Translations under genes and position numbers: made by a program
Notes under the pieces: model-generated
What the model was told of the DNA's origin: nothing
The model's input: only the letters and a program-made list of their open reading frames with translations
Database searches by the model: none
Shown: positions 3,331 to 13,748 of the stretch, piece by piece
Layout of the letters: the number at the start of each line of letters is the position of its first letter
How positions within the stretch are numbered: the first letter of the stretch is position 1
NCBI GenBank assembly: GCA_963843575.1
Contig: CAWJKZ010000009.1
Coordinates: 64,001 to 128,000, forward strand
Source of the DNA: an uncultured Acidobacteriota bacterium
Lineage (GTDB): Bacteria > Acidobacteriota > UBA6911
DNA: 64,000 nt
Reading direction: 5' to 3'

Positions 3331-5775
3331 ATGCAGCGTAAGGCGCTTCTGGGTTTCCTGCTGCTGGCCGTCAACTCCGGCGTTCTTGCGGCCGCGGCCG
3401 ACCACTACCTGCCCCAAATCGTGAACGGGCGGTCGGGAGGCGTTCTCATGCGGACGACCTTCCTGCTCGTCAACAAGCGCACACTCCCCGTACCCTTGAC
3501 CCTTTCGCTCACGGCCGACGATGGCTTACCACTTGCGCTGACCATGGTGGGCGCGGGAAGCTCCAGCACCTTCCGGCTCACGCTGGGGCCCGCCCAGACG
3601 CGCATTCTGCGGACGGACGGCTCCGGCGGCCTGCGCACGGGCGCGGCCGTCTTGTCGGCGGGCGACGGCGTCGATGTGTCCGTTGTGTTCTCGGTGATCC
3701 CGGAGGGACGCTCAGGATCCGAGACCGGCGTCGGAGCTGCGCCGCCGTTGTCGGCCTTCTATGTGCCGGTCGATGCGGCCGGCAGCTCCTCCGTCGGGGT
3801 GGCTCTGCTGAATCCCGGCGGCCAGGCCTCGGAAGTCAGATTCCGTCTGATCGATCGACAAGGGTCCGAGGCCGGCGTGCAGGAACGGCGGCTGGAAGCC
3901 GGGCATCACATGGCCATCTTTGTGACGGGCGCAGGTCAGCTCTTTCCTGGGTTCTCGGACTTTCAGGGAATCCTGTCAGTGATGAGCACGCAACCGCTCT
4001 CCGCCATCACGCTGAAGCAGTATGCGGACCCGATTTCGTATACATCGTTCCCGGTAATTTCGGCCTCGGCCGCCGCAAATGAGTTCACCTTCGCGCACCT
4101 CGCGATCGGGCGATCCCTGACCGAGCGCTACCGGACCTCATTTCTCGTTTTCAATGCAGGATCCTCCGCCGCCCACGTTTCGCTCGACCTGACCCGCGAC
4201 GATGGGAGCCCGCTCACAGCCAGCCTGCCCGGCGCCGTTGGAGCGGGTGGCCGATTTTGGTTGCCGGAGATTCCCGCTCTTGGCTCCGTCCTTCTCGAAA
4301 CGGGCGATGACGGCCCGGTTCAATCCGGGGCGGCCCGGCTGATATCGGATGCTCCCGTGGGCGCCGCGGCCGTGGTCCGCCTGTCGGATGGTTTCGGCAA
4401 CCGGGCGGCGGAGTCAGGCATTCCCAGCTGTCCGGCACTGAGCCAACTCACCATCCCAGTGGACTCCGGCCCGAACCTCGGGACCGGCGTGGCGTTCTTC
4501 AACGCCGGTCCCGAGGCGGCTCTATTGAGGGTGAGGTTGTTCAACGAACTTGGGCTCGAGCAGACGGCCGTTTCAGCCCTCACCCTGCCGGCCGGTTCAC
4601 ACGTGGCCCGCTATGTCACGGAGCTCTTTCCCGGAGCCATCGGCAGCCGGGGTTCGCTCGCCATCGAGTCGTCCTTCCCCATCGCAGCTGCGGCGTTGCG
4701 CCTGGGTTTGTCGCCGGCGGTCCTCACGACCCTGCCGATCGCTGCCGGCGCCGCCGTGAAGTGGCCCGGCTACTGGCCGACCAACGGATGGCGGACGTCG
4801 CTCCCGGAGGAACAGGGGATCGACTCCCAGATCCTGGTGGCCGGTGGCGAGTATGTGCGCACTCAGTTCCCTATGTGCTACAGCGTCAGCGTGGTCCGGC
4901 ACGGCCGGCTGGTATTCGAGCGCTACTACAACGGGGTTCAACCCGGCGACGCCACTAACATCATGTCCGTCACGAAGAGTGTCCTCTCAGCCCTGACCGG
5001 CATTGCCCTCGAACAGAAGATCCTTCAAGGCGTCGATCAGCCCATCGCCGACTACTACCCGGAATACTTCACTCCTGCGCTCGATCCAGGGAAGCGGGAA
5101 ATTCGCATCAGGCACCTCCTGACCATGACGGCCGGCCTCGAGTGGCAGGAGTGGGGGTCGGTCTTCTACCAGTGGCTCCAATCGAGAGACTTCCTCAGGT
5201 TCGCCATCGAACTCCCTCTGGTCAGCGCCCCAGGCGGGCAGTTCAACTACAACACGGCGCTGACCCACCTCCAGTCGGGGATACTGACCAGGGCGTCGGG
5301 GCTGACCACCCTCGAGTTCGGGAGAAGGAATCTCTTCGACCCTTTGGGCTTCACACGATTCCAATGGATGACAGACCCACAGGGCTACAACATCGGTGGC
5401 GCTGAGCTCTACCTTACGCCGCGGGACATGGCGAAGTTCGGGTATCTGTTCCTTGAGCAGGGCTACTGGGAAGACCGGCAGTTGGTGCCCGCGGCCTGGG
5501 TTCGGGAGTCCACCAGCATCAAAGTTGCCGACCCGAACCAAACCGGGTTTACGGATTACGGTTACCTGTGGTGGCTGGGTTGGATTCAAGGCCAATGGTA
5601 CTTCAGGGCCGCCGGCCACGGGGGCCAATCGATCTTCATCTTCCCGGACCTCGACATGGTTGTGGTCCTCACTGCACGATCCGATGTGACTACGGAGCAG
5701 AATTCCGTCAACTACTCGCGCACATTCACTTACCTGAGGGAGTACGTGCTCAAGGCCGTCGATCCCGAATGGTGA
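3331..5775 (+). CDS. Exported serine hydrolase (beta-lactamase/class C-like domain) with N-terminal tandem beta-sandwich repeats
   Basis: Signal peptide; two ~225-aa repeats; C-terminal SVTK (SxxK), FNYNT, IRHLLTMTAG, YGYLWW and AAGHGGQ; GAGGAG RBS. Confidence 0.88.
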   Translation: MQRKALLGFLLLAVNSGVLAAAADHYLPQIVNGRSGGVLMRTTFLLVNKRTLPVPLTLSLTADDGLPLALTMVGAGSSSTFRLTLGPAQTRILRTDGSGGLRTGAAVLSAGDGVDVSVVFSVIPEGRSGSETGVGAAPPLSAFYVPVDAAGSSSVGVALLNPGGQASEVRFRLIDRQGSEAGVQERRLEAGHHMAIFVTGAGQLFPGFSDFQGILSVMSTQPLSAITLKQYADPISYTSFPVISASAAANEFTFAHLAIGRSLTERYRTSFLVFNAGSSAAHVSLDLTRDDGSPLTASLPGAVGAGGRFWLPEIPALGSVLLETGDDGPVQSGAARLISDAPVGAAAVVRLSDGFGNRAAESGIPSCPALSQLTIPVDSGPNLGTGVAFFNAGPEAALLRVRLFNELGLEQTAVSALTLPAGSHVARYVTELFPGAIGSRGSLAIESSFPIAAAALRLGLSPAVLTTLPIAAGAAVKWPGYWPTNGWRTSLPEEQGIDSQILVAGGEYVRTQFPMCYSVSVVRHGRLVFERYYNGVQPGDATNIMSVTKSVLSALTGIALEQKILQGVDQPIADYYPEYFTPALDPGKREIRIRHLLTMTAGLEWQEWGSVFYQWLQSRDFLRFAIELPLVSAPGGQFNYNTALTHLQSGILTRASGLTTLEFGRRNLFDPLGFTRFQWMTDPQGYNIGGAELYLTPRDMAKFGYLFLEQGYWEDRQLVPAAWVRESTSIKVADPNQTGFTDYGYLWWLGWIQGQWYFRAAGHGGQSIFIFPDLDMVVVLTARSDVTTEQNSVNYSRTFTYLREYVLKAVDPEW

Positions 5776-7004: not shown

Positions 7005-8717
7005 ATGGAGGATTTCACGAACATCGAGTTTCACCGCTCTGGGTATGGGATGCTCCCCGACATGCAGGACAAAGATCCCGGCATGCCGATCTGCTTTCCA
7101 AGGAATGCCGGCGGAGAAATACTCACCGGCAAATGCGACTGCCGCCAAAGCAGGAAAGGGCAGGATTGTGCGCATTTTGAGCGGCTGGTTCGGGCTGCGC
7201 GCCAGATAAGGAAACAAAATGGGGGCCGTTCCTGGGGAGACGCCTTCAATGCAAGCTTGTGGTACCGACTCGCAGCCATTTTGAGCGAAGGAGATGCTGT
7301 CCTGTGCCCTGACATTCGTGCCGCCCGCAATCCGCAGGAGCGGACTTGGAGCTTCCTGTCTCCGCGGGAGGCCCTGTTAGCGAAGTCACTGGATGACTCC
7401 GAAGCTTCATTGAGGCTGCTCGAACGGGCCGGAAAGACACCGCGGTCAAATCGCTTCCGGGACCGCGCCGCACTCATACGGCACCTCGCCATCATACTGC
7501 GCGGCGAGGATGAGAAGAGGATGAACGAAGCAGGGGTCCTCACCTATCGCCAGACCACGGAACAGAGCTTCTGGGGAATGCTCGCCTATCACTGCTTCCG
7601 GGAATACGGCGCCGCCTGTACCTTCCACCCTGCAATCGAGCAGGCGACCGGCGATTTTGTTCTCAAGTGCCGCTCCCGCAGCGAGGAACTCTTGCTGGAA
7701 CTTGTTCTGCCGCGCCGGCGGGTACGCAAGGCCCTTGGACTGCTGGCTGCCGAATTTCCTGGACAGGCCGACCTGGCGCTCCATCCTGTCCCGCTCAAAT
7801 CGATATTCCTCGTCTCGCAGAAAACGAAATTGGATCTCGAGGTGCGCCCCATGATCCAGACACTGCAGTCTTCAGGTGAGGCGCGGTTTATCGCCAGCGA
7901 GGACTGTGCAAGATTTCGATATGGCGATCTCGTGTATCTGCGCGAAATGAATATCCTGGCGGAGTTGGAAACGCCAGGCACAGCAAGAAGATTCGTCGCC
8001 CCGACCAGCATGAAACTCAAACGAAGCCAGCTCCCGGCGTAGCTTGACGAACACCGGCGCGACCTGGAAGACGGCCTGCTGGTGCTCGACGAACCGTTGC
8101 GCGAGCTTTCAATTCTGCGGGAACCGACGGCATCGAGATTGTCTCGGAGACGCTCGAACGCAGTTGGTATTGGCTTTCGATCCGCTACGGATTCGGAGAC
8201 GAATCCGTTTCCCTCGCAGACATCCTGCAGGCGAAGCGCGCGGGCCAGGGGTACATCCAGCTCCGTCGCGGTTGGGTGGATGTCAATTCGCAGGCATTCA
8301 GAGCCCTTGACCAGATAGAGAAACACGAGGCACTCGCGATCGAGGGGAGGAAGGTACGCTTCTCGCCCGTCGATCTGCTGCGCCTGATGTCGTCCAATTG
8401 CCAACCTCTCCGAATCAAGGAAGAAGACCAGCGCGCCGAAATCGTGAAGCGGCTGCTCGCACTGAAACCAGCGCTTCCCGGAGGCCGTCTCAGGGGAATG
8501 GTCACTCCGTTGCGCCCGTACCAGATGAAGGGAGTCGACTGGCTTCGCTTTCTGTTCGAAAACAATCTCGGCGGTTTGCTTTGCGACGACATGGGACTCG
8601 GCAAAACCCACCAGACGATGGCGCTGATGATCTCTCTTCGCGAACGCAACCGGATCAAGGATCCGTTCCTGATTGTCTGTCCTACCACCGTCATAAGCCA
8701 CTGGATGAACAAGATTC
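7005..8717 (+). pseudogene. SWIM-like zinc finger/SNF2-family helicase, disrupted
   Basis: CDC..CAH at the N-terminus; LRPYQMKGVDWL, LCDDMGLGKT and LIVCPTTVISHW motifs; in-frame TAG at 8040-8042; frameshift near 8135; cut by the IS at 8718; motif II onward absent. Confidence 0.85.
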
Positions 8718-8774
8718 CAGACCTCCTGACATAGTGTCGCGGACCCGCGTGTTTAGTGGGTATGCGTCAGGGGT

Positions 8775-9381
8775 AGGGGGGGACCCAAACCTGTCCGCTT
8801 TTTGTGACGCCGGTTTTTCGACTCCGGGGGGATCTGGCATGCTCCTGCCATGGCAGGAGCAGAACAGCAACGACGGCTTTTTCCGGATCCTCCTTGCGAC
8901 GACGCGACGATCCTCATAAATGATCGCTGCGTCATTCGGACGGAGCATGACTCTCGGCTTGTGGTCGTGTCGGGTATTCCGCTCGCGCAATACGCTGTAG
9001 GGGATAGAATGGCCGAGGCGCACGCGAAGGTCACCCTCGTAGAAGCAGGATGGGCGGACCAGAACGATGTTGCCCACGCGTTCGGTTGCTCGGCGCGCAC
9101 TGTCCGCCGGCATCAGCGTCGGTTCGGAGCGGGTGGACTCCCGGCGCTCGCCCGCGAGGATGGATATCCAACTGGATGGCGACGAATTGCACGGTCGCGA
9201 GAGCAACTCGTGCTTCGGCTGAAGGCACAGGGCCAGTCGAACCACGAGATTGCACGCCGCCTCGGCGTGACTCCAAAAGCAGTACGGAAGCTGCTGAAAC
9301 GACTTGGCTGGTGTGGGACCGAGCCGGGGCAACCTTCTCTCCCCATCGCGGCAGGGGGGGACCCAAACCTGTCCGCTTTTT
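8775..9381 (+). repeat. 29-bp direct repeat AGGGGGGGACCCAAACCTGTCCGCTTTTT (8775-8803, 9353-9381); core inverted at 11132-11142
   Basis: Exact duplication read from the sequence; AAAAGCGGACA near the right TIR is the reverse complement of the core TGTCCGCTTTT. Confidence 0.85.
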
Positions 9382-11129
9382 CCCCTCGCGGTCGCGATGG
9401 CGCAACTGCGGCGCGTCCACTCAGGGCCCCAATGGTCTCCACTGCCCCAGAGGACGACGAACCGATTCCAGTGTCGTTTGATACCGACCCCTCCGACCGC
9501 CGCATAGACCGAGTCCTGGCGTACTTGGGCCTGCTCGATGACGCAGCTCCGCTCTTCCGTTCCGGTACTCACGTACCGCGCGCCGGCGTATTGCTCGCAG
9601 TGCCCGCTCTGGTCGACAGCGACGCGTTCACGATCGCCCGCAAGATCTACGGCAGTATCGGCCCCGCCTTCTACGGCCTGCGCACCACGTTGCTGGCCTT
9701 GCTGCTCATAGCGCTCCTGCGTATCAAACGGCCCGAAGCGCTTAAGGAACACGTGCCGCAGGATCTCGGACGGGTTCTCGGCCTCGATCGCGCACCCGAA
9801 GTGAAGACCCTGCGGCGCAAGCTCAGCCGTCTCGCTGCCTATGGCCGTGCCGCAGAGTTTGGACGTGCCCTGGCGCAACAGCGCGTGGCAGAGCGCGGGG
9901 CCGCGCTCGGGTTCCTGTACGTCGACGGACACGTCCGCGTCTATCACGGCAAGCGCACCCTGCCGAAGACCCACGTTGCACGTATGCGCCTGTCGATGCC
10001 CGCAACGACGGACTACTGGGTCAACGACACCGTCGGAGACCCACTCTTCGTCGTCACGGCTGAGGCGAACGCCGGCATGGTGAAGATGCTGCCCAAGGTG
10101 CTCGCCGAGGTCCGAGTCCTTGTCGGCGACCGACGCGTGACCGTGGTGTTCGGCCGGGGTGGCTTCAGCCCGAAACTCTTCCTCAAGCTGATCGCCGACG
10201 GCTTCGACATCCTCACGTACCGGAAGGGCCGCTTCCGGCGAGTCGGCCGATCGTGTTTTCGGGTGCACGACTCGGTCATCGACGGACGGAAGGTCTCGTA
10301 CAACCTGGCGGATCAAGAGGTGCGTCTCCTCAAAAGGAAACTCCGGCTGCGGCAGGTTACGCGACTCGCTGAGGACGGCCACCAGACTCCGATCTTGACC
10401 TCCCGGCGCGATCTGTCGACTCTCGAGGTCGCCCACAGGATGTTTGAGAGATGGCGCCAGGAGAACTTTTTCAAGTACTTGCGAGAGGAATATGCGCTCG
10501 ACGCCCTAGCCGACTACCGAGCCGTTCCGGATGACCCTGCGCGGGACGTCCCCAACCCCTATCGGCTGGAGATGACGGCCAAGATCAAAGAGGCTCGCGC
10601 CGTGCTCGAGCGGCTCACTGGCGAATACGGAGCCGAGGCTTTTCTCAATCCCGAGCAATCCCGGCCAACGATGCGCGGCTTCAAGATCGCGCAGAGCAAA
10701 CTCGCTGACCAGATCCGAGAGACGCTCGAACGTACCGCAAGACTCGAGGAATTGCGCGCCGCCATGCCTACCCGGGTCCCCGTCGGCGACCTCGTCAGGG
10801 ACGGCCTCGTCAAGCTCGATCCCGAGCGCAAGTTCCTGACCAACCTCATCAAATTGGTCGCCTATCAAGCGGAGAGCGACCTGGTGCGTCTTGTTGCTCC
10901 GCACTACAAGCGCACGGACCAGGAAGGGAGAACGTTGATCCAGTCGGCCCTCGCCGCGCCGGCGGATCTCGAAGTCACAGCGGAGGATCTCCGAGTCAGG
11001 ATCGTGCCGCTCAGTTCGCCGCACCGGAGTCGCGCCATCGCGTCCCTCTGCGACGAACTCAATCGGCGGTCCACCCGGTTTCCGGGTTCCCGGCTCCGCC
11101 TCAACTATGCTGTGCGCGAGGCACCGTGA
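8850..11129 (+). CDS. Large transposase with N-terminal HTH domains (YVDGHVRVYHG type, IS4-superfamily-like fold)
   Basis: Two HTHs (QNDVAHAFGCSARTVRR; SNHEIARRLGVTPKAVRKLL); FLYVDGH, VVFGRGG (expected D is G) and RWRQENFFK; fills the TIR-bounded interval. Confidence 0.85.
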   Translation: MAGAEQQRRLFPDPPCDDATILINDRCVIRTEHDSRLVVVSGIPLAQYAVGDRMAEAHAKVTLVEAGWADQNDVAHAFGCSARTVRRHQRRFGAGGLPALAREDGYPTGWRRIARSREQLVLRLKAQGQSNHEIARRLGVTPKAVRKLLKRLGWCGTEPGQPSLPIAAGGDPNLSAFSPRGRDGATAARPLRAPMVSTAPEDDEPIPVSFDTDPSDRRIDRVLAYLGLLDDAAPLFRSGTHVPRAGVLLAVPALVDSDAFTIARKIYGSIGPAFYGLRTTLLALLLIALLRIKRPEALKEHVPQDLGRVLGLDRAPEVKTLRRKLSRLAAYGRAAEFGRALAQQRVAERGAALGFLYVDGHVRVYHGKRTLPKTHVARMRLSMPATTDYWVNDTVGDPLFVVTAEANAGMVKMLPKVLAEVRVLVGDRRVTVVFGRGGFSPKLFLKLIADGFDILTYRKGRFRRVGRSCFRVHDSVIDGRKVSYNLADQEVRLLKRKLRLRQVTRLAEDGHQTPILTSRRDLSTLEVAHRMFERWRQENFFKYLREEYALDALADYRAVPDDPARDVPNPYRLEMTAKIKEARAVLERLTGEYGAEAFLNPEQSRPTMRGFKIAQSKLADQIRETLERTARLEELRAAMPTRVPVGDLVRDGLVKLDPERKFLTNLIKLVAYQAESDLVRLVAPHYKRTDQEGRTLIQSALAAPADLEVTAEDLRVRIVPLSSPHRSRAIASLCDELNRRSTRFPGSRLRLNYAVREAP

Positions 11130-11173
11130 CGAAAAGCGGACAATTTCGGAGGCGTCTATGTCAGGAGGTCTGG

Positions 11174-13166
11174 GTGCGCCATGAAGGTGCACCGTTCTAG
11201 CGGGTGGAAGTCCCGCCCGAGGAGTTTGGTCGATACGCCTCGGTAGCTGTCAGGCGCGGAAAAACCCGAAAAAGGGAAGGCGGGCGACCGCCACCGCGAA
11301 GCCCTGAGACAAAGGCCCCGAAAGGAGGTCGAGCAAGCACGCAGGCCGCAACGCGAGTGAAGCCTGAGCAGGCCCCGATAGCTGTGTCGTGGACGCTGAC
11401 CCATCCCAGATACGGGGAAAGCCGTCGAGGAGGTGGGCGAGGGAATCGACCAATGCCCGCCACCTGTCCACCGGGGTATTGGGCGCAGCATGCGTGCACA
11501 GAACGATGCGCAACATGGGAGACCTGGCGGCGCGTGGGATTAAGACCGAACACGCACGGAAGGCAAGGGGCGTGGCGCGCTCCAGGAGTCGGAGGGGCCC
11601 ATTGTACCGAGGAAGCGGGGTAATGCCCGTGGAGGGAAGGGGCCCTGGTTCAGAGTGCTTCGCGAGGAGCGGACGAGCAGGAGATTGGCGATGAGCCTAA
11701 CACCCGAAACAACCAAGCTCGAAGAGCTTCGAGGGAAGCTGTATTCGAAGGCCAAGACCGAGCCGACGTTCCGGTTCTATGCGCTGTACGACAAGGTCTA
11801 TCGGTGGGACGTCCTGACGGAGGCGCTGCGACTCTCGCGAGAGAAGAACGGTGCCCCGGGAGTGGACGGCCAGACGTTCGATCAGATCAGGGAGTACGGC
11901 GAGGAGCGGTGGCTCCAGGAGCTGCAGCAGGAGCTGCAGGAGAAGACCTATCGGCCCCAGCCTGTCCGGAGGGTGCTGATTCCAAAGCCAGGGGGAGGAG
12001 AGCGGCCGCTGGGAATTCCCACCATCAAGGATCGGGTGGCCCAGACGGCGGCGAAGCTCATTCTGGAGCCGATCTTCGAGGCCGACCTGAGCGATACGGC
12101 GTACGGGTACCGTCCCGGGCGCGGTGCCGTTCGGGCGGTGCAGCAGGTCCATCAGGAACTTCGCCGACGCCGCACCAAGGTCGTCGATGCGGATCTCTCG
12201 AAGTACTTCGACACGATTCCCCACGCGGAGCTGATGACCTGCCTCGCGCGGAGGATCGCAGATGCGGCGATGCTCCATCTCATCAAGATGTGGCTAAAGG
12301 TGCCGGTCGAGGAGAGAGACGAGCAAGGACGGCGGCGGTTCAGCGGCGGCAAGCGCTCCAAGTGCGGGACGCCGCAGGGAGGTGTGGTTTCGCCGCTGTT
12401 GGCGAACATCTACATCAACCGGATGCTCAAAGCGTTCGCCAAGAGCGACCTGATGAGACGGTGCGGGGCCAGGATCGTCAACTACGCCGACGACTTCGTG
12501 GTGCTGTGCGAACACAGCGCGGCGGCAGGTCCTGGCGGAGGTGAGGCGTTGGATCGTTGGGATGAAGCTGAAACTCAACGAAGCCAAGACGTGTCTACGC
12601 GACGCATGGAAGGAAAGCTTCCGCTTCTTGGGATACGAGTTCGGACCGTTGGGGTATCGGCCGACGCGAACGCGCTACCTGGGAGCCCGACCGTCGAAGA
12701 AGGCAATGGAGAAGGTCCGACAGCGGGTGAGCGAAATCCTCTGGCGCGGTCGTACGGAGCGCTGGAAGGACATTTGTCAAGAGCTCAACCAGTACCTCAC
12801 GGGCTGGGCGGCTTACTTCGCCTACGACACCGCCTACCCATCGTTCCGCATCGTGGACATTCACGTCGCGGCACGTGCGAGGAACTTCCTGAGAAGGAGG
12901 CACAAGCTGTCCAGCGGGACAGCGCGGTTCGGCTACGTCGAGGTGCATCGTGACCTTGGTGTTGTCGAGATCCGGAGCCTCCTGCGGTCGCATGCCCCGA
13001 ATGAAATCTGTCCGAGAGCTGGATGCGGGAAATCCGCACGTCCAGTTCGATGAGCGGCGTGGAGGAGACGGGCCCACGGAAGGCCTCGGTGAGCGTGTGG
13101 GCGAAAGCTCACCCGCGTAGTCGGCTCCGACCTTCCTTCAGGTACCGCGCCTCCCGCCGACTCTCC
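11174..13166 (+). mobile_element. Group II intron (RT-encoding, no endonuclease domain)
   Basis: 5' end GTGCG at 11174; domain V GAGCTGGATGCGGGAAATCCGCACGTCCAGTTC (13016-13048); domain VI ending CCGACTCTCC; removal restores the IS TSD GATTC exactly. Confidence 0.92.
11691..13053 (+). pseudogene. ltrA: Group II intron reverse transcriptase/maturase, frameshifted near 12520
   Basis: GAPGVDG, RPLGIPTIKDRVAQ, DADLSKYFDTIPH, GTPQGGVVSPLLANIY and NYADDFV. The thumb/X domain (LKLNEAKT, FRFLGYEF, LTGWAAYF) continues in another frame. The frameshift could be a sequencing error. Confidence 0.88.
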
Positions 13167-13224
13167 ATTCAGAACGGCGGCTTCCTGCCGATCGAGAAGA
13201 TCCGGGAGAAGTTCAAGGCGGCGC

Positions 13225-13692
13225 ACGCTTCGACGGGGAAAACGCTGGTGCGGACCAGGCTGTAGCCCATGAACTCGAGAATGGCGGGATCACGGGACCG
13301 CGACACGATCGCCTCGTACAGGCTCCGCGCCTCCGCGCGCGCAAGAATACGCGCCGAAGGCTCGGGGCCGGGACCCTGGAATGTGAACCCGCGCACGACG
13401 GATCCGCCGGGAATCGGGACGATGAGTTCGGCCTCGGTCCGTACCGGTCGGGGTGAAACAGCGAAATGTCCATGGTGGTCGAGGCAGCCCGGTCCCTGAT
13501 CCGGACATCCAGGGCAACCGCCGTGACCTCGGCGGCAGCAGTCCCCCGCACGATCCAGGCGCTGCGTTGAGGCACGATCACCACGGACGCCAAGGCAGGT
13601 TCCCGTGTCTGCGCACGCACGGCTTCGTTGAGCACACCCGACGCGCAGAGCATCAGGAGGGCGATGAGGACCATTCGGCGTAATGTATTCAT
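13225..13692 (-). pseudogene. Exported VIT-domain (VIT/VWA-type) protein, N-terminal part only
   Basis: Signal peptide; ARILARAEARSLYEAIVSRSRDPAILEF..VRTSVFPVEA; frameshift near 13450; 3' truncated. Confidence 0.75.
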
Positions 13693-13748
13693 GCGAGACT
13701 CCTTTCTGCATCCTCTGCCGGAATATACGGCTGAGCGGGGGCGTTCCC

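Follow-up and report, generated by a model that had tools for sequence, protein, structure and literature searches.

Group II introns of bacteria commonly ‘hide’ in mobile elements and transposase genes, according to the overview in PMC7306698, and one described intron does so at the very repeats that delimit its host element. This is RmInt2 of Sinorhizobium meliloti GR4, which is reported to be found only in the inverted repeats of the insertion sequence (IS) ISRm17 and to be experimentally mobile, retrohoming with a lagging-strand bias; with it, the principle of an intron homing to an IS inverted repeat is already published (PMC4615759). Here, we analyze a 64,000-nt stretch of DNA (the window) from an uncultured Acidobacteriota bacterium of the UBA6911 lineage (assembly GCA_963843575.1, contig CAWJKZ010000009.1, positions 64,001 to 128,000 of the forward strand), in which a group II intron stands against the outer end of an IS. 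We favor the reading, with a probability of about 0.7, that this intron, which lacks an endonuclease domain (En-less), has the outer IS terminus as its homing site. The 5' exon of the intron is the right inverted repeat of the IS; as the insertion point falls beyond the final base of the IS, neither of the two repeats nor the transposase is lost. It fits the evidence that the recognition elements of the intron are set to the IS terminus, with the IS ends serving as landing sites that would leave the IS intact. The features on which this reading draws are as follows:

8717..11173, plus strand: insertion sequence of 2457 bp with a perfect 18-bp inverted repeat, its ends and transposase frame intact
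8717..8734, plus strand: left terminal inverted repeat (TIR), whose minus strand offers the intron site …GGTCTGG followed by AATC, unoccupied
8850..11129, plus strand: transposase open reading frame (ORF) of 759 aa; PF21804 (Transposase_29), E 1.2e-81, profile positions 6-559 of 562
11156..11173, plus strand: right TIR, equal to the last 18 nt of the 5' exon; intron-binding site 1 (IBS1), GTCTGG, at 11168-11173
11174..13166, plus strand: group II intron of 1993 nt without endonuclease domain, IIB-like, with a long domain VI; Rfam RF02003 and RF00029, boundaries from relatives and Logan contigs
11381..11386, plus strand: probable position of exon-binding site 2 (EBS2) in the family, from a segment pairing score and weak mutual-information peaks
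11400..11416, plus strand: EBS1 hairpin; stem of CCC (11400-11402) with GGG (11414-11416), EBS1 CCAGAU at 11406-11411
11479..11479, plus strand: EBS3 (U), whose partner is the first 3'-exon base, A13167; Watson-Crick with exon position +1 in 97% of 69 relatives
11691..13053, plus strand: reverse transcriptase (RT)/maturase of the intron, with a +1 frameshift between 12510 and 12528; RVT_1 and GIIM in two frames
13014..13166, plus strand: domains V and VI (RF00029); bulged A13160, 7 nt from the end; 3' end CC
13167..13170, plus strand: first 3'-exon bases, ATTC, the right-hand copy of GA(A/T)TC, the target site of the IS; IBS3 is A13167

The evidence that carries this reading comes from the base pairing between intron and exons, as traced through its relatives. 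Searched with the intron-encoded RT as query, species-representative genomes yielded 80 loci and metagenomes another 80, at 53-78% amino-acid identity, and the 5' ends of 110 introns could be located among them. The sequence-only reading of this DNA had proposed that the last six bases of the IS, GTCTGG, pair with CCAGAU, and that the latter lies in a loop closed by CCC and GGG at the expected place of EBS1; both proposals hold. The pairing is complete at 6/6 positions, one of them a G-U pair, and among 87 distinct hairpin-exon combinations it is 6/6 in 65, 5/6 in 21 and 2/6 in a single one, so that 86/87 pair at five or more positions. The mean of 5.71 pairs compares with 2.60 (sd 0.12) when the exons are shuffled among the introns and with 2.2-2.4 when the loop is read in shifted registers. 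EBS1 and exon covary position by position among the relatives: by mutual information, exon positions -1 to -7 map singly onto 11406 to 11412, with values of 1.04-1.75 and pairing of 79-100% for -1 to -6 against 11406-11411. The closing helix is paired in 97% of cases over 75 sequences, with 21 compensatory cells, a figure matched by 0/500 shuffles, and a fourth pair is present in most relatives. On this covariation, CCAGAU is the true EBS1. The same comparison singles out the column of U11479 as EBS3, the next best alignment column reaching 65% Watson-Crick pairing with the first 3'-exon base vs 97%; by this measure, U11479-A13167 is the EBS3-IBS3 pair. Our structural claims rest on covariation because a minimum-free-energy fold of intron nt 1-487 was no better than shuffles (z-score -1.59) and was left unused.

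The other half of the match is supplied by the IS. Its inverted repeat reads CCAGACCTCCTGACATAG at 8717-8734 and its complement at 11156-11173, with no mismatch over 18 bp, and together with the transposase, which carries helix-turn-helix domains at its N-terminus besides PF21804 (profile search), and a target-site duplication, this identifies it as an IS. Comparing the transposase with plasmids by tblastn returned one weak match (29% identity over 21% of the query) and gave no IS family name. The same genome (G000) holds two more copies of 70% identity, G000:C14:753188-755649 and G000:C10:637063-639286, the latter truncated on its left side, and further copies are present in a sister genome, G001, those at loci L196 and L197 being among the copies located elsewhere. 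The terminal bases of the G001 copies are the same as in the window and G000, the terminal 18 nt being common to all the copies compared in the two genomes, and CTATGTCAGGAGGTCTGG followed by A is common to all TIR ends of the family. All five IS flanks read in two genomes, including those at 8713-8717 and 13166-13170 of the window, show G-AAT/ATT-C, with AAT duplicated within GAATC at the C14 copy and at L196 of G001; hence, the IS inserts into GA(A/T)TC (GAWTC), which we take to be a HinfI/CcrM-type motif, GANTC. The duplication can be counted as 3 bp, with IS ends CC...GG, or as 5 bp, with ends C...G. As these two are indistinguishable and both valid, it is equally admissible to place the intron one base outside the right TIR within a 5-bp duplication GATTC, as had been claimed from the sequence alone, or flush with the TIR, since the inverted-repeat complementarity extends to 11173; the match of ATT on the two sides is weak in itself, for reasons given below. 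Under either count, the base after the IS is invariably A. Because the IS inserts into GAWTC, the U of EBS3 pairs with the A that always follows it and, therefore, a full intron site, with IBS1 in the repeat and IBS3 as the A, is present at both ends of every IS copy. Accordingly, the window shows the identical 18 nt plus A at both IS ends on opposite strands, and the left end was rightly described before as offering the same site on the minus strand, CTATGTCAGGAGGTCTGG followed by AATC, with no intron in it.

The start of the intron at 11174, already placed there by the sequence-only reading, agrees with a GUGCG at that position, conforming to GUGYG, and with the domain I model RF02003 just downstream, at 11198-11356 (84.4 bits, cut-off 49). 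Domains V and VI are matched by RF00029 at 13014-13166, with 43 bits against a cut-off of 40; the AGC triad is there, and domain VI spans about 13055-13166. The 3' end is nearly invariant in the family, ...CUCGACUCUAC, and the window, read against this consensus, has ...CCGACUCUCC followed by AUUCAG, so that the intron ends at 13166 with C instead of A as its penultimate base. This end agrees with the EBS3 pairing to A13167 and with a 1581-nt contig of metagenome run X6, which tracks the intron up to 13167 and then diverges. In G004, a genome of a related genus, a 5'-truncated intron fragment of 93% identity ends in ...CUCUAC and is followed by AGTC, and thus by a 3' exon of the A-N-T-C pattern found at the IS target. 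The intron-encoded protein (IEP) stops after domain X: it has RVT_1 and GIIM only, without a D/En (HNH) region, and its ORF ends inside domain V. When the translations are read by eye, the C-termini of this IEP and of those at loci L036, L116, L117 and L118 lack the class D motif LX3AX3PXLF[V/A]HW. A class F affiliation may be suggested by the long domain VI and by the organisms in which the relatives occur.

For EBS2, the picture is less sharp. In a subset of relatives, EBS2-type covariation with exon positions -10 to -16 places it in the 6 nt after GGCCYCGAAA, about 11381-11386; the pairing score of this segment with the exons is 10.98, vs 10.04 (sd 0.26) for shuffled partners, and weak mutual-information peaks link -11..-13 to 11382-11385. 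Initial scans of the intron for complements, exact or nearly so, to exon -17..-7 showed no peak. The two CCUGA copies that the sequence-only reading had offered as candidates both fail, the one at 11363 being part of the constant motif UGAGCAGGCC, which is unchanged in relatives whatever their exon, and the one at 11303 lying within a helix of the Rfam model.

As a mechanism, we envisage that the intron RNA would be supplied by transcripts of the transposase gene that read through its end, located 44 nt before the intron on the same strand, that the ribonucleoprotein would reverse-splice into empty IS ends, and that cDNA synthesis might be primed at replication forks, by analogy with what has been shown for the En-less RmInt1 and RmInt2. 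As EBS1 matches the IS end and EBS3 the invariant A, the complete intron site is recreated at both ends of each new IS copy.

The RT domain of the window copy is readable to 12509 in frame +2 and its X domain from 12526 in frame +3, TIGR04416 matching both IEP pieces; the tblastn alignment with the intact IEP of L117 likewise stays in frame +2 as far as intron nt 1336 and resumes in frame +3 at nt 1353. For the IEP start, the ATG at 11691 was chosen on the basis of the sequence and of the M-S-L with which the proteins of relatives begin. At 12527/12528, one base fewer is present in contigs of runs X1, X4 and X6 and, therefore, the extra base is private to the window copy or to its assembly. 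At the 3' end, 60/64 relatives with one clear domain VI 3' motif end in AC, and CC occurs once, in the window copy; we read it as a mutation of this copy and not of the intron family. With its frameshifted RT, penultimate A>C change and weak EBS2 pairing, the copy looks like a decaying relic that has probably lost the ability to move on its own. Such a relic is in line with the description of most intron copies in bacteria as inactivated (PMC4424553).

A number of observations weigh against the IS end being the habitual target. The RT/maturase ORF is broken and the intron does not end in AY. At the probable EBS2, only CUG (11382-11384) pairs with CAG at -12..-10 of the exon, a mere 3 bp, and in the X6 variant two EBS2 bases are changed with no pair gained. 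There is one full intron copy in its own genome, where four identical ends (the left end in the window, both ends of the C14 copy and the right end of the C10 copy), that is, 4/5 sites, are empty, as are all three IS ends read in G001. The window target, allowing up to 5 mismatches in 16, is present in 0/106 relatives with at least 17 nt of 5' exon, and the closest IEPs, of 78%, 78% and 73% identity, have other 5' exons. The TIR-intron junction occurs in 1/401 genomes sampled from the phylum, this one being the window's own, and is lacking in the 400 others. A search for the IS in G004 gave 0 matches, which in a 110-contig assembly is no proof of absence. A search of Logan contigs for the junction did recover it in runs X2 and X6, from different studies. 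The X6 contig (235 nt, depth 20) agrees with the window over 11156-11378 except for 3 differences, and the 12 letters before the match are not those of the window; in the X2 contig (267 nt), the match begins at 11157 and is preceded by 41 letters unlike the window sequence. Both join the same 17-18 nt of 5' exon to an intron 96-99% identical to that of the window. Since the upstream letters diverge, similarity begins at the inner edge of the 18-bp repeat, which is the pattern expected if such an intron sits at the ends of diverged IS copies. That these upstream letters belong to the interior of an IS would have to be deduced from short contigs, which also counts on the negative side. Of independent copies at the same IS repeat, there is one in the genome; the junction recurs in two more runs, whose contigs extend no more than 12 and 41 nt past the repeat.

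Some of these points could also be accommodated by a one-off ectopic retrotransposition, in which an intron with its habitual site elsewhere landed a single time beside a look-alike IS end. The single copy with 4/5 identical genomic sites empty, the poor EBS2 pairing and the other targets of the nearest relatives are all as such an event would have it. However, a stray landing does not predict a fully matched EBS1 together with a matched EBS3, nor the reappearance, in contigs from two further runs, of the same 5' exon next to an intron of 96-99% identity, nor the A-N-T-C 3' exon of the G004 fragment; we accordingly regard it as an unlikely account, if the foremost among the rivals. Far less probable is a reversed order of events, by which the IS entered a GAWTC immediately preceding an intron already in place and their adjacency says nothing on targeting: the strict GAWTC preference of the IS and flanks made of unrelated truncated genes, indicating rearrangement around it, are compatible with this, but the IS insertion would have destroyed the original 5' exon, the 6/6 match to EBS1 would be left to chance (shuffled average 2.6/6, shuffled means never above 2.95), and the same junction recurs in the X6 and X2 contigs. 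An assembly artefact, by which two repeats were fused into a chimera when the metagenome-assembled genome (MAG) was built, deserves as little credence, for although the genome is an 88% complete assembly of 27 contigs, IS and intron are both repeats and the frameshift could be an assembly error, independent Logan contigs from X6 and X2 bridge the junction, and a random join is not expected to yield EBS1 and EBS3 complementarity to exactly these exons. With regard to homing to the IS terminus, then, the earlier suggestion that IS ends are landing pads on which the intron spares its host draws support from the EBS1 and EBS3 matches, the X6 and X2 junctions and the L042 locus described next, and is held back by the defective copy, the 4/5 empty sites and the failure of the EBS2 candidates that it came with.

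The same suggestion implied that the 5' exons of relatives, too, would be TIR ends, and this stands in part: four relatives are flush with such ends, and the three closest IEPs are at other sequences. Among the former is L042 (L042:1-3130), from an alphaproteobacterial MAG, where a 1043-bp IS1595-type element at 65-1107, with terminal repeats alike at 19/20 positions, has the same intron flush at both ends, each copy pointing outward; of the left copy, the contig holds only 64 nt, and all 64/64 are identical. L042 is the only relative seen with both IS ends filled. The introns at L099, by an IS with a DDE_Tnp_1 transposase, at L090, and at L141, by an element of about 0.5 kb with no recognised ORF, are each flush with an inverted-repeat end. 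More broadly, an inverted partner of the target matching at 15/16 or better was found for 10/43 introns scanned, one-shuffle controls reaching 13 at most; the scan took the last regex match as the 3' end, which is wrong for at least L045, L077, L078, L100, L120 and L143, so that these rows are unreliable, and it left out L042, with its short flanks.

These cases raise the tentative possibility, which we consider rather doubtful at present, of a clade of En-less, class F-like introns in which several lineages have specialized on the exact outer termini of transposable elements, leaving the IS functional and acting as non-destructive hyperparasites of ISs. Its termini-specialized members would be those at the PF21804-type IS, the IS1595-type element with both ends filled, the DDE_Tnp_1 IS and the approximately 0.5-kb element, which resembles a miniature inverted-repeat transposable element. 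With IBS1 given by the final bases of the IS and IBS3 by its target preference, the IS would, on this wider proposal, remain transposition-competent and keep seeding intron sites. In a bolder form of the proposal, the 3'-OH of the IS end exposed by the transposase, which is that of the 5' exon, might take part in the chemistry of integration.

The remaining introns of the RT clade occupy many diverse sites. In L061, L068, L071, L075 and L079, the intron is inserted in sense orientation into a transposase motif, after …G-Y-D-A-G-K-K and before I-K-G…, the exon halves joining in frame; this subgroup makes up 5/107 introns of the clade, and its transposases are presumably of the IS5 type. A 17-nt 5' exon motif, CTAGCCCGCATTTCTCA, with its variants, recurs in 17/107 introns from several phyla (L036, L038, L041, L044, L045, L047, L050, L053, L070, L078, L126, L137, L139, L140, L152, L153 and L189). 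Upstream of this motif (group a), there is no conserved sequence, and the ten downstream ORFs that we tested comprise an IS1380-type transposase (PF13701) in L047 and nine ordinary genes; an IS-terminus origin of the motif is only a lead. In L044 and L045, an inverted copy of it lies about 166 nt downstream. Another set (group c), with 5' exons of the form ATGTC...TGGCA and ATGTC in the register of the window, was tried as the same IS family and rejected: the supposed TIR of L064 (15/20) was not upheld, its inverted partner being 13/16 in the scan and the enclosed ORF a beta-lactamase-family gene.

Some further features of these loci may be recorded for their own sake. At the left end of the DDE_Tnp_1 element (L099:3216-3300), tandem copies of AAAGACGCAAAGGGGTCAGGT constitute repeated intron target sites. 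The introns at L076:3755-4491 and L090:1565-4491 are at inverted repeats flanking Y1 (IS200-like) transposase genes, which are possibly REP/RAYT-type units, and the opposite strand of the L090 element carries a further RT gene. The L119 intron lies inside a long inverted duplication. In L080 (about 3353-3610), as well as in L059 and L055, domain V and the very beginning of domain VI give way to a new domain I-like sequence, and these look like nested introns (twintrons). Finally, G000:C17:1265-1747 (minus strand), near the start of contig 17, is a second, distant group II intron remnant, 70-83% identical over short stretches.

Around the IS-intron unit of the window, both neighbors are gene fragments, one of the SNF2 family and the other, on the opposite strand, with a VIT domain:

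8276..8716, plus strand: left flank, N-terminal SNF2-family gene fragment cut by the IS; PF00176, profile positions 1-70 of 290
13169..13711, minus strand: right flank, ORF of 180 aa with a VIT domain (PF08487, E 1.7e-7), ending at the intron boundary

The remainder of the SNF2 gene is not in the 6.68-Mb assembly, where the left-flank fragment is the sole PF00176 match, and this suggests an IS-associated deletion or rearrangement. ATT is present on both sides of the unit, a chance match of 1 in 2. As GAWTC is fixed in every IS copy and the flanks are two unrelated truncated genes, this apparent duplication is weak evidence of an undisturbed insertion.

Returning to the known systems, the window intron resembles RmInt2 in being En-less, and, as described for the latter, all natural RmInt2 copies are in an IS inverted repeat that provides two sites per IS on opposite strands. 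It differs in its IS family, which is not that of ISRm17, and in its protein, RmInt2 being of ORF class D and the IEPs of the window and its relatives lacking, by eye, the class D C-terminal motif. Further, RmInt2 is described as lying ‘within’ the inverted repeat, with a minimal target of -16 to +7, whereas the 5' exon in the window consists entirely of the IS terminus and the 3' exon belongs to the flank or to a target-site duplication, a difference that may depend on the exact RmInt2 position in its repeat (PMC4615759). RmInt1, in ISRm2011-2, and Sr.md.I1, in an IS66-type transposase gene, are likewise En-less and IS-resident, and they have in common with what we envisage for this intron targeting by EBS1, EBS2 and EBS3 with IEP contacts and replication-fork priming; they differ in being of class D and in lying, according to these reports, inside the IS coding region and not at its terminus (PMC4615759; PMC1802570). 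Within the present RT clade, siting of the RmInt1 kind, in transposase genes, is seen in the 5/107 subgroup noted above.

In their architecture, the class F or ‘g’ introns So.us.I2, Ge.ur.I1 and Pe.th.I2 are similar: as reported, they too have no D/En, their RNA is IIB-like, domain I containing both EBS1 and EBS2, and domain VI is long and structured. Many relatives of the window intron come from MAGs of Bryobacterales and Solibacteraceae, the host group of So.us.I2, a likeness to class F that is one of features and not of a tree (PMC3552965; PMC3753933). Class C (IIC) introns at terminators and attC sites are also found beside inverted-repeat DNA motifs outside genes; these, however, are described as recognizing a stem-loop and as being without EBS2, in contrast to the 6-7-nt EBS1 and the EBS3 of this lineage, with their sequence covariation (PMC4424553). 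We found no description of insertion flush with an IS terminus in the limited collection of literature searched, which leaves its absence unproven.

Set against this background, what is new here comprises an intron lineage outside class D, another IS family, an insertion point flush with the end of the IS and the derivation of IBS3 from the IS target preference. If correct, our reading provides a second natural case of a retroelement that parasitizes a DNA transposon via its terminal repeat, with a different intron lineage and a different IS family; here, the flush insertion leaves the IS unbroken and the GAWTC preference of the IS supplies IBS3. Should the flush pattern in the five lineages prove adaptive, it would show that nested mobile elements can coexist without mutual damage. 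The mapped EBS1 and EBS3, along with the probable EBS2, of this poorly studied clade should be of use in annotating and retargeting such introns. In other respects, the locus fits the established picture of bacterial group II introns as residents of mobile DNA, as outlined in PMC7306698.

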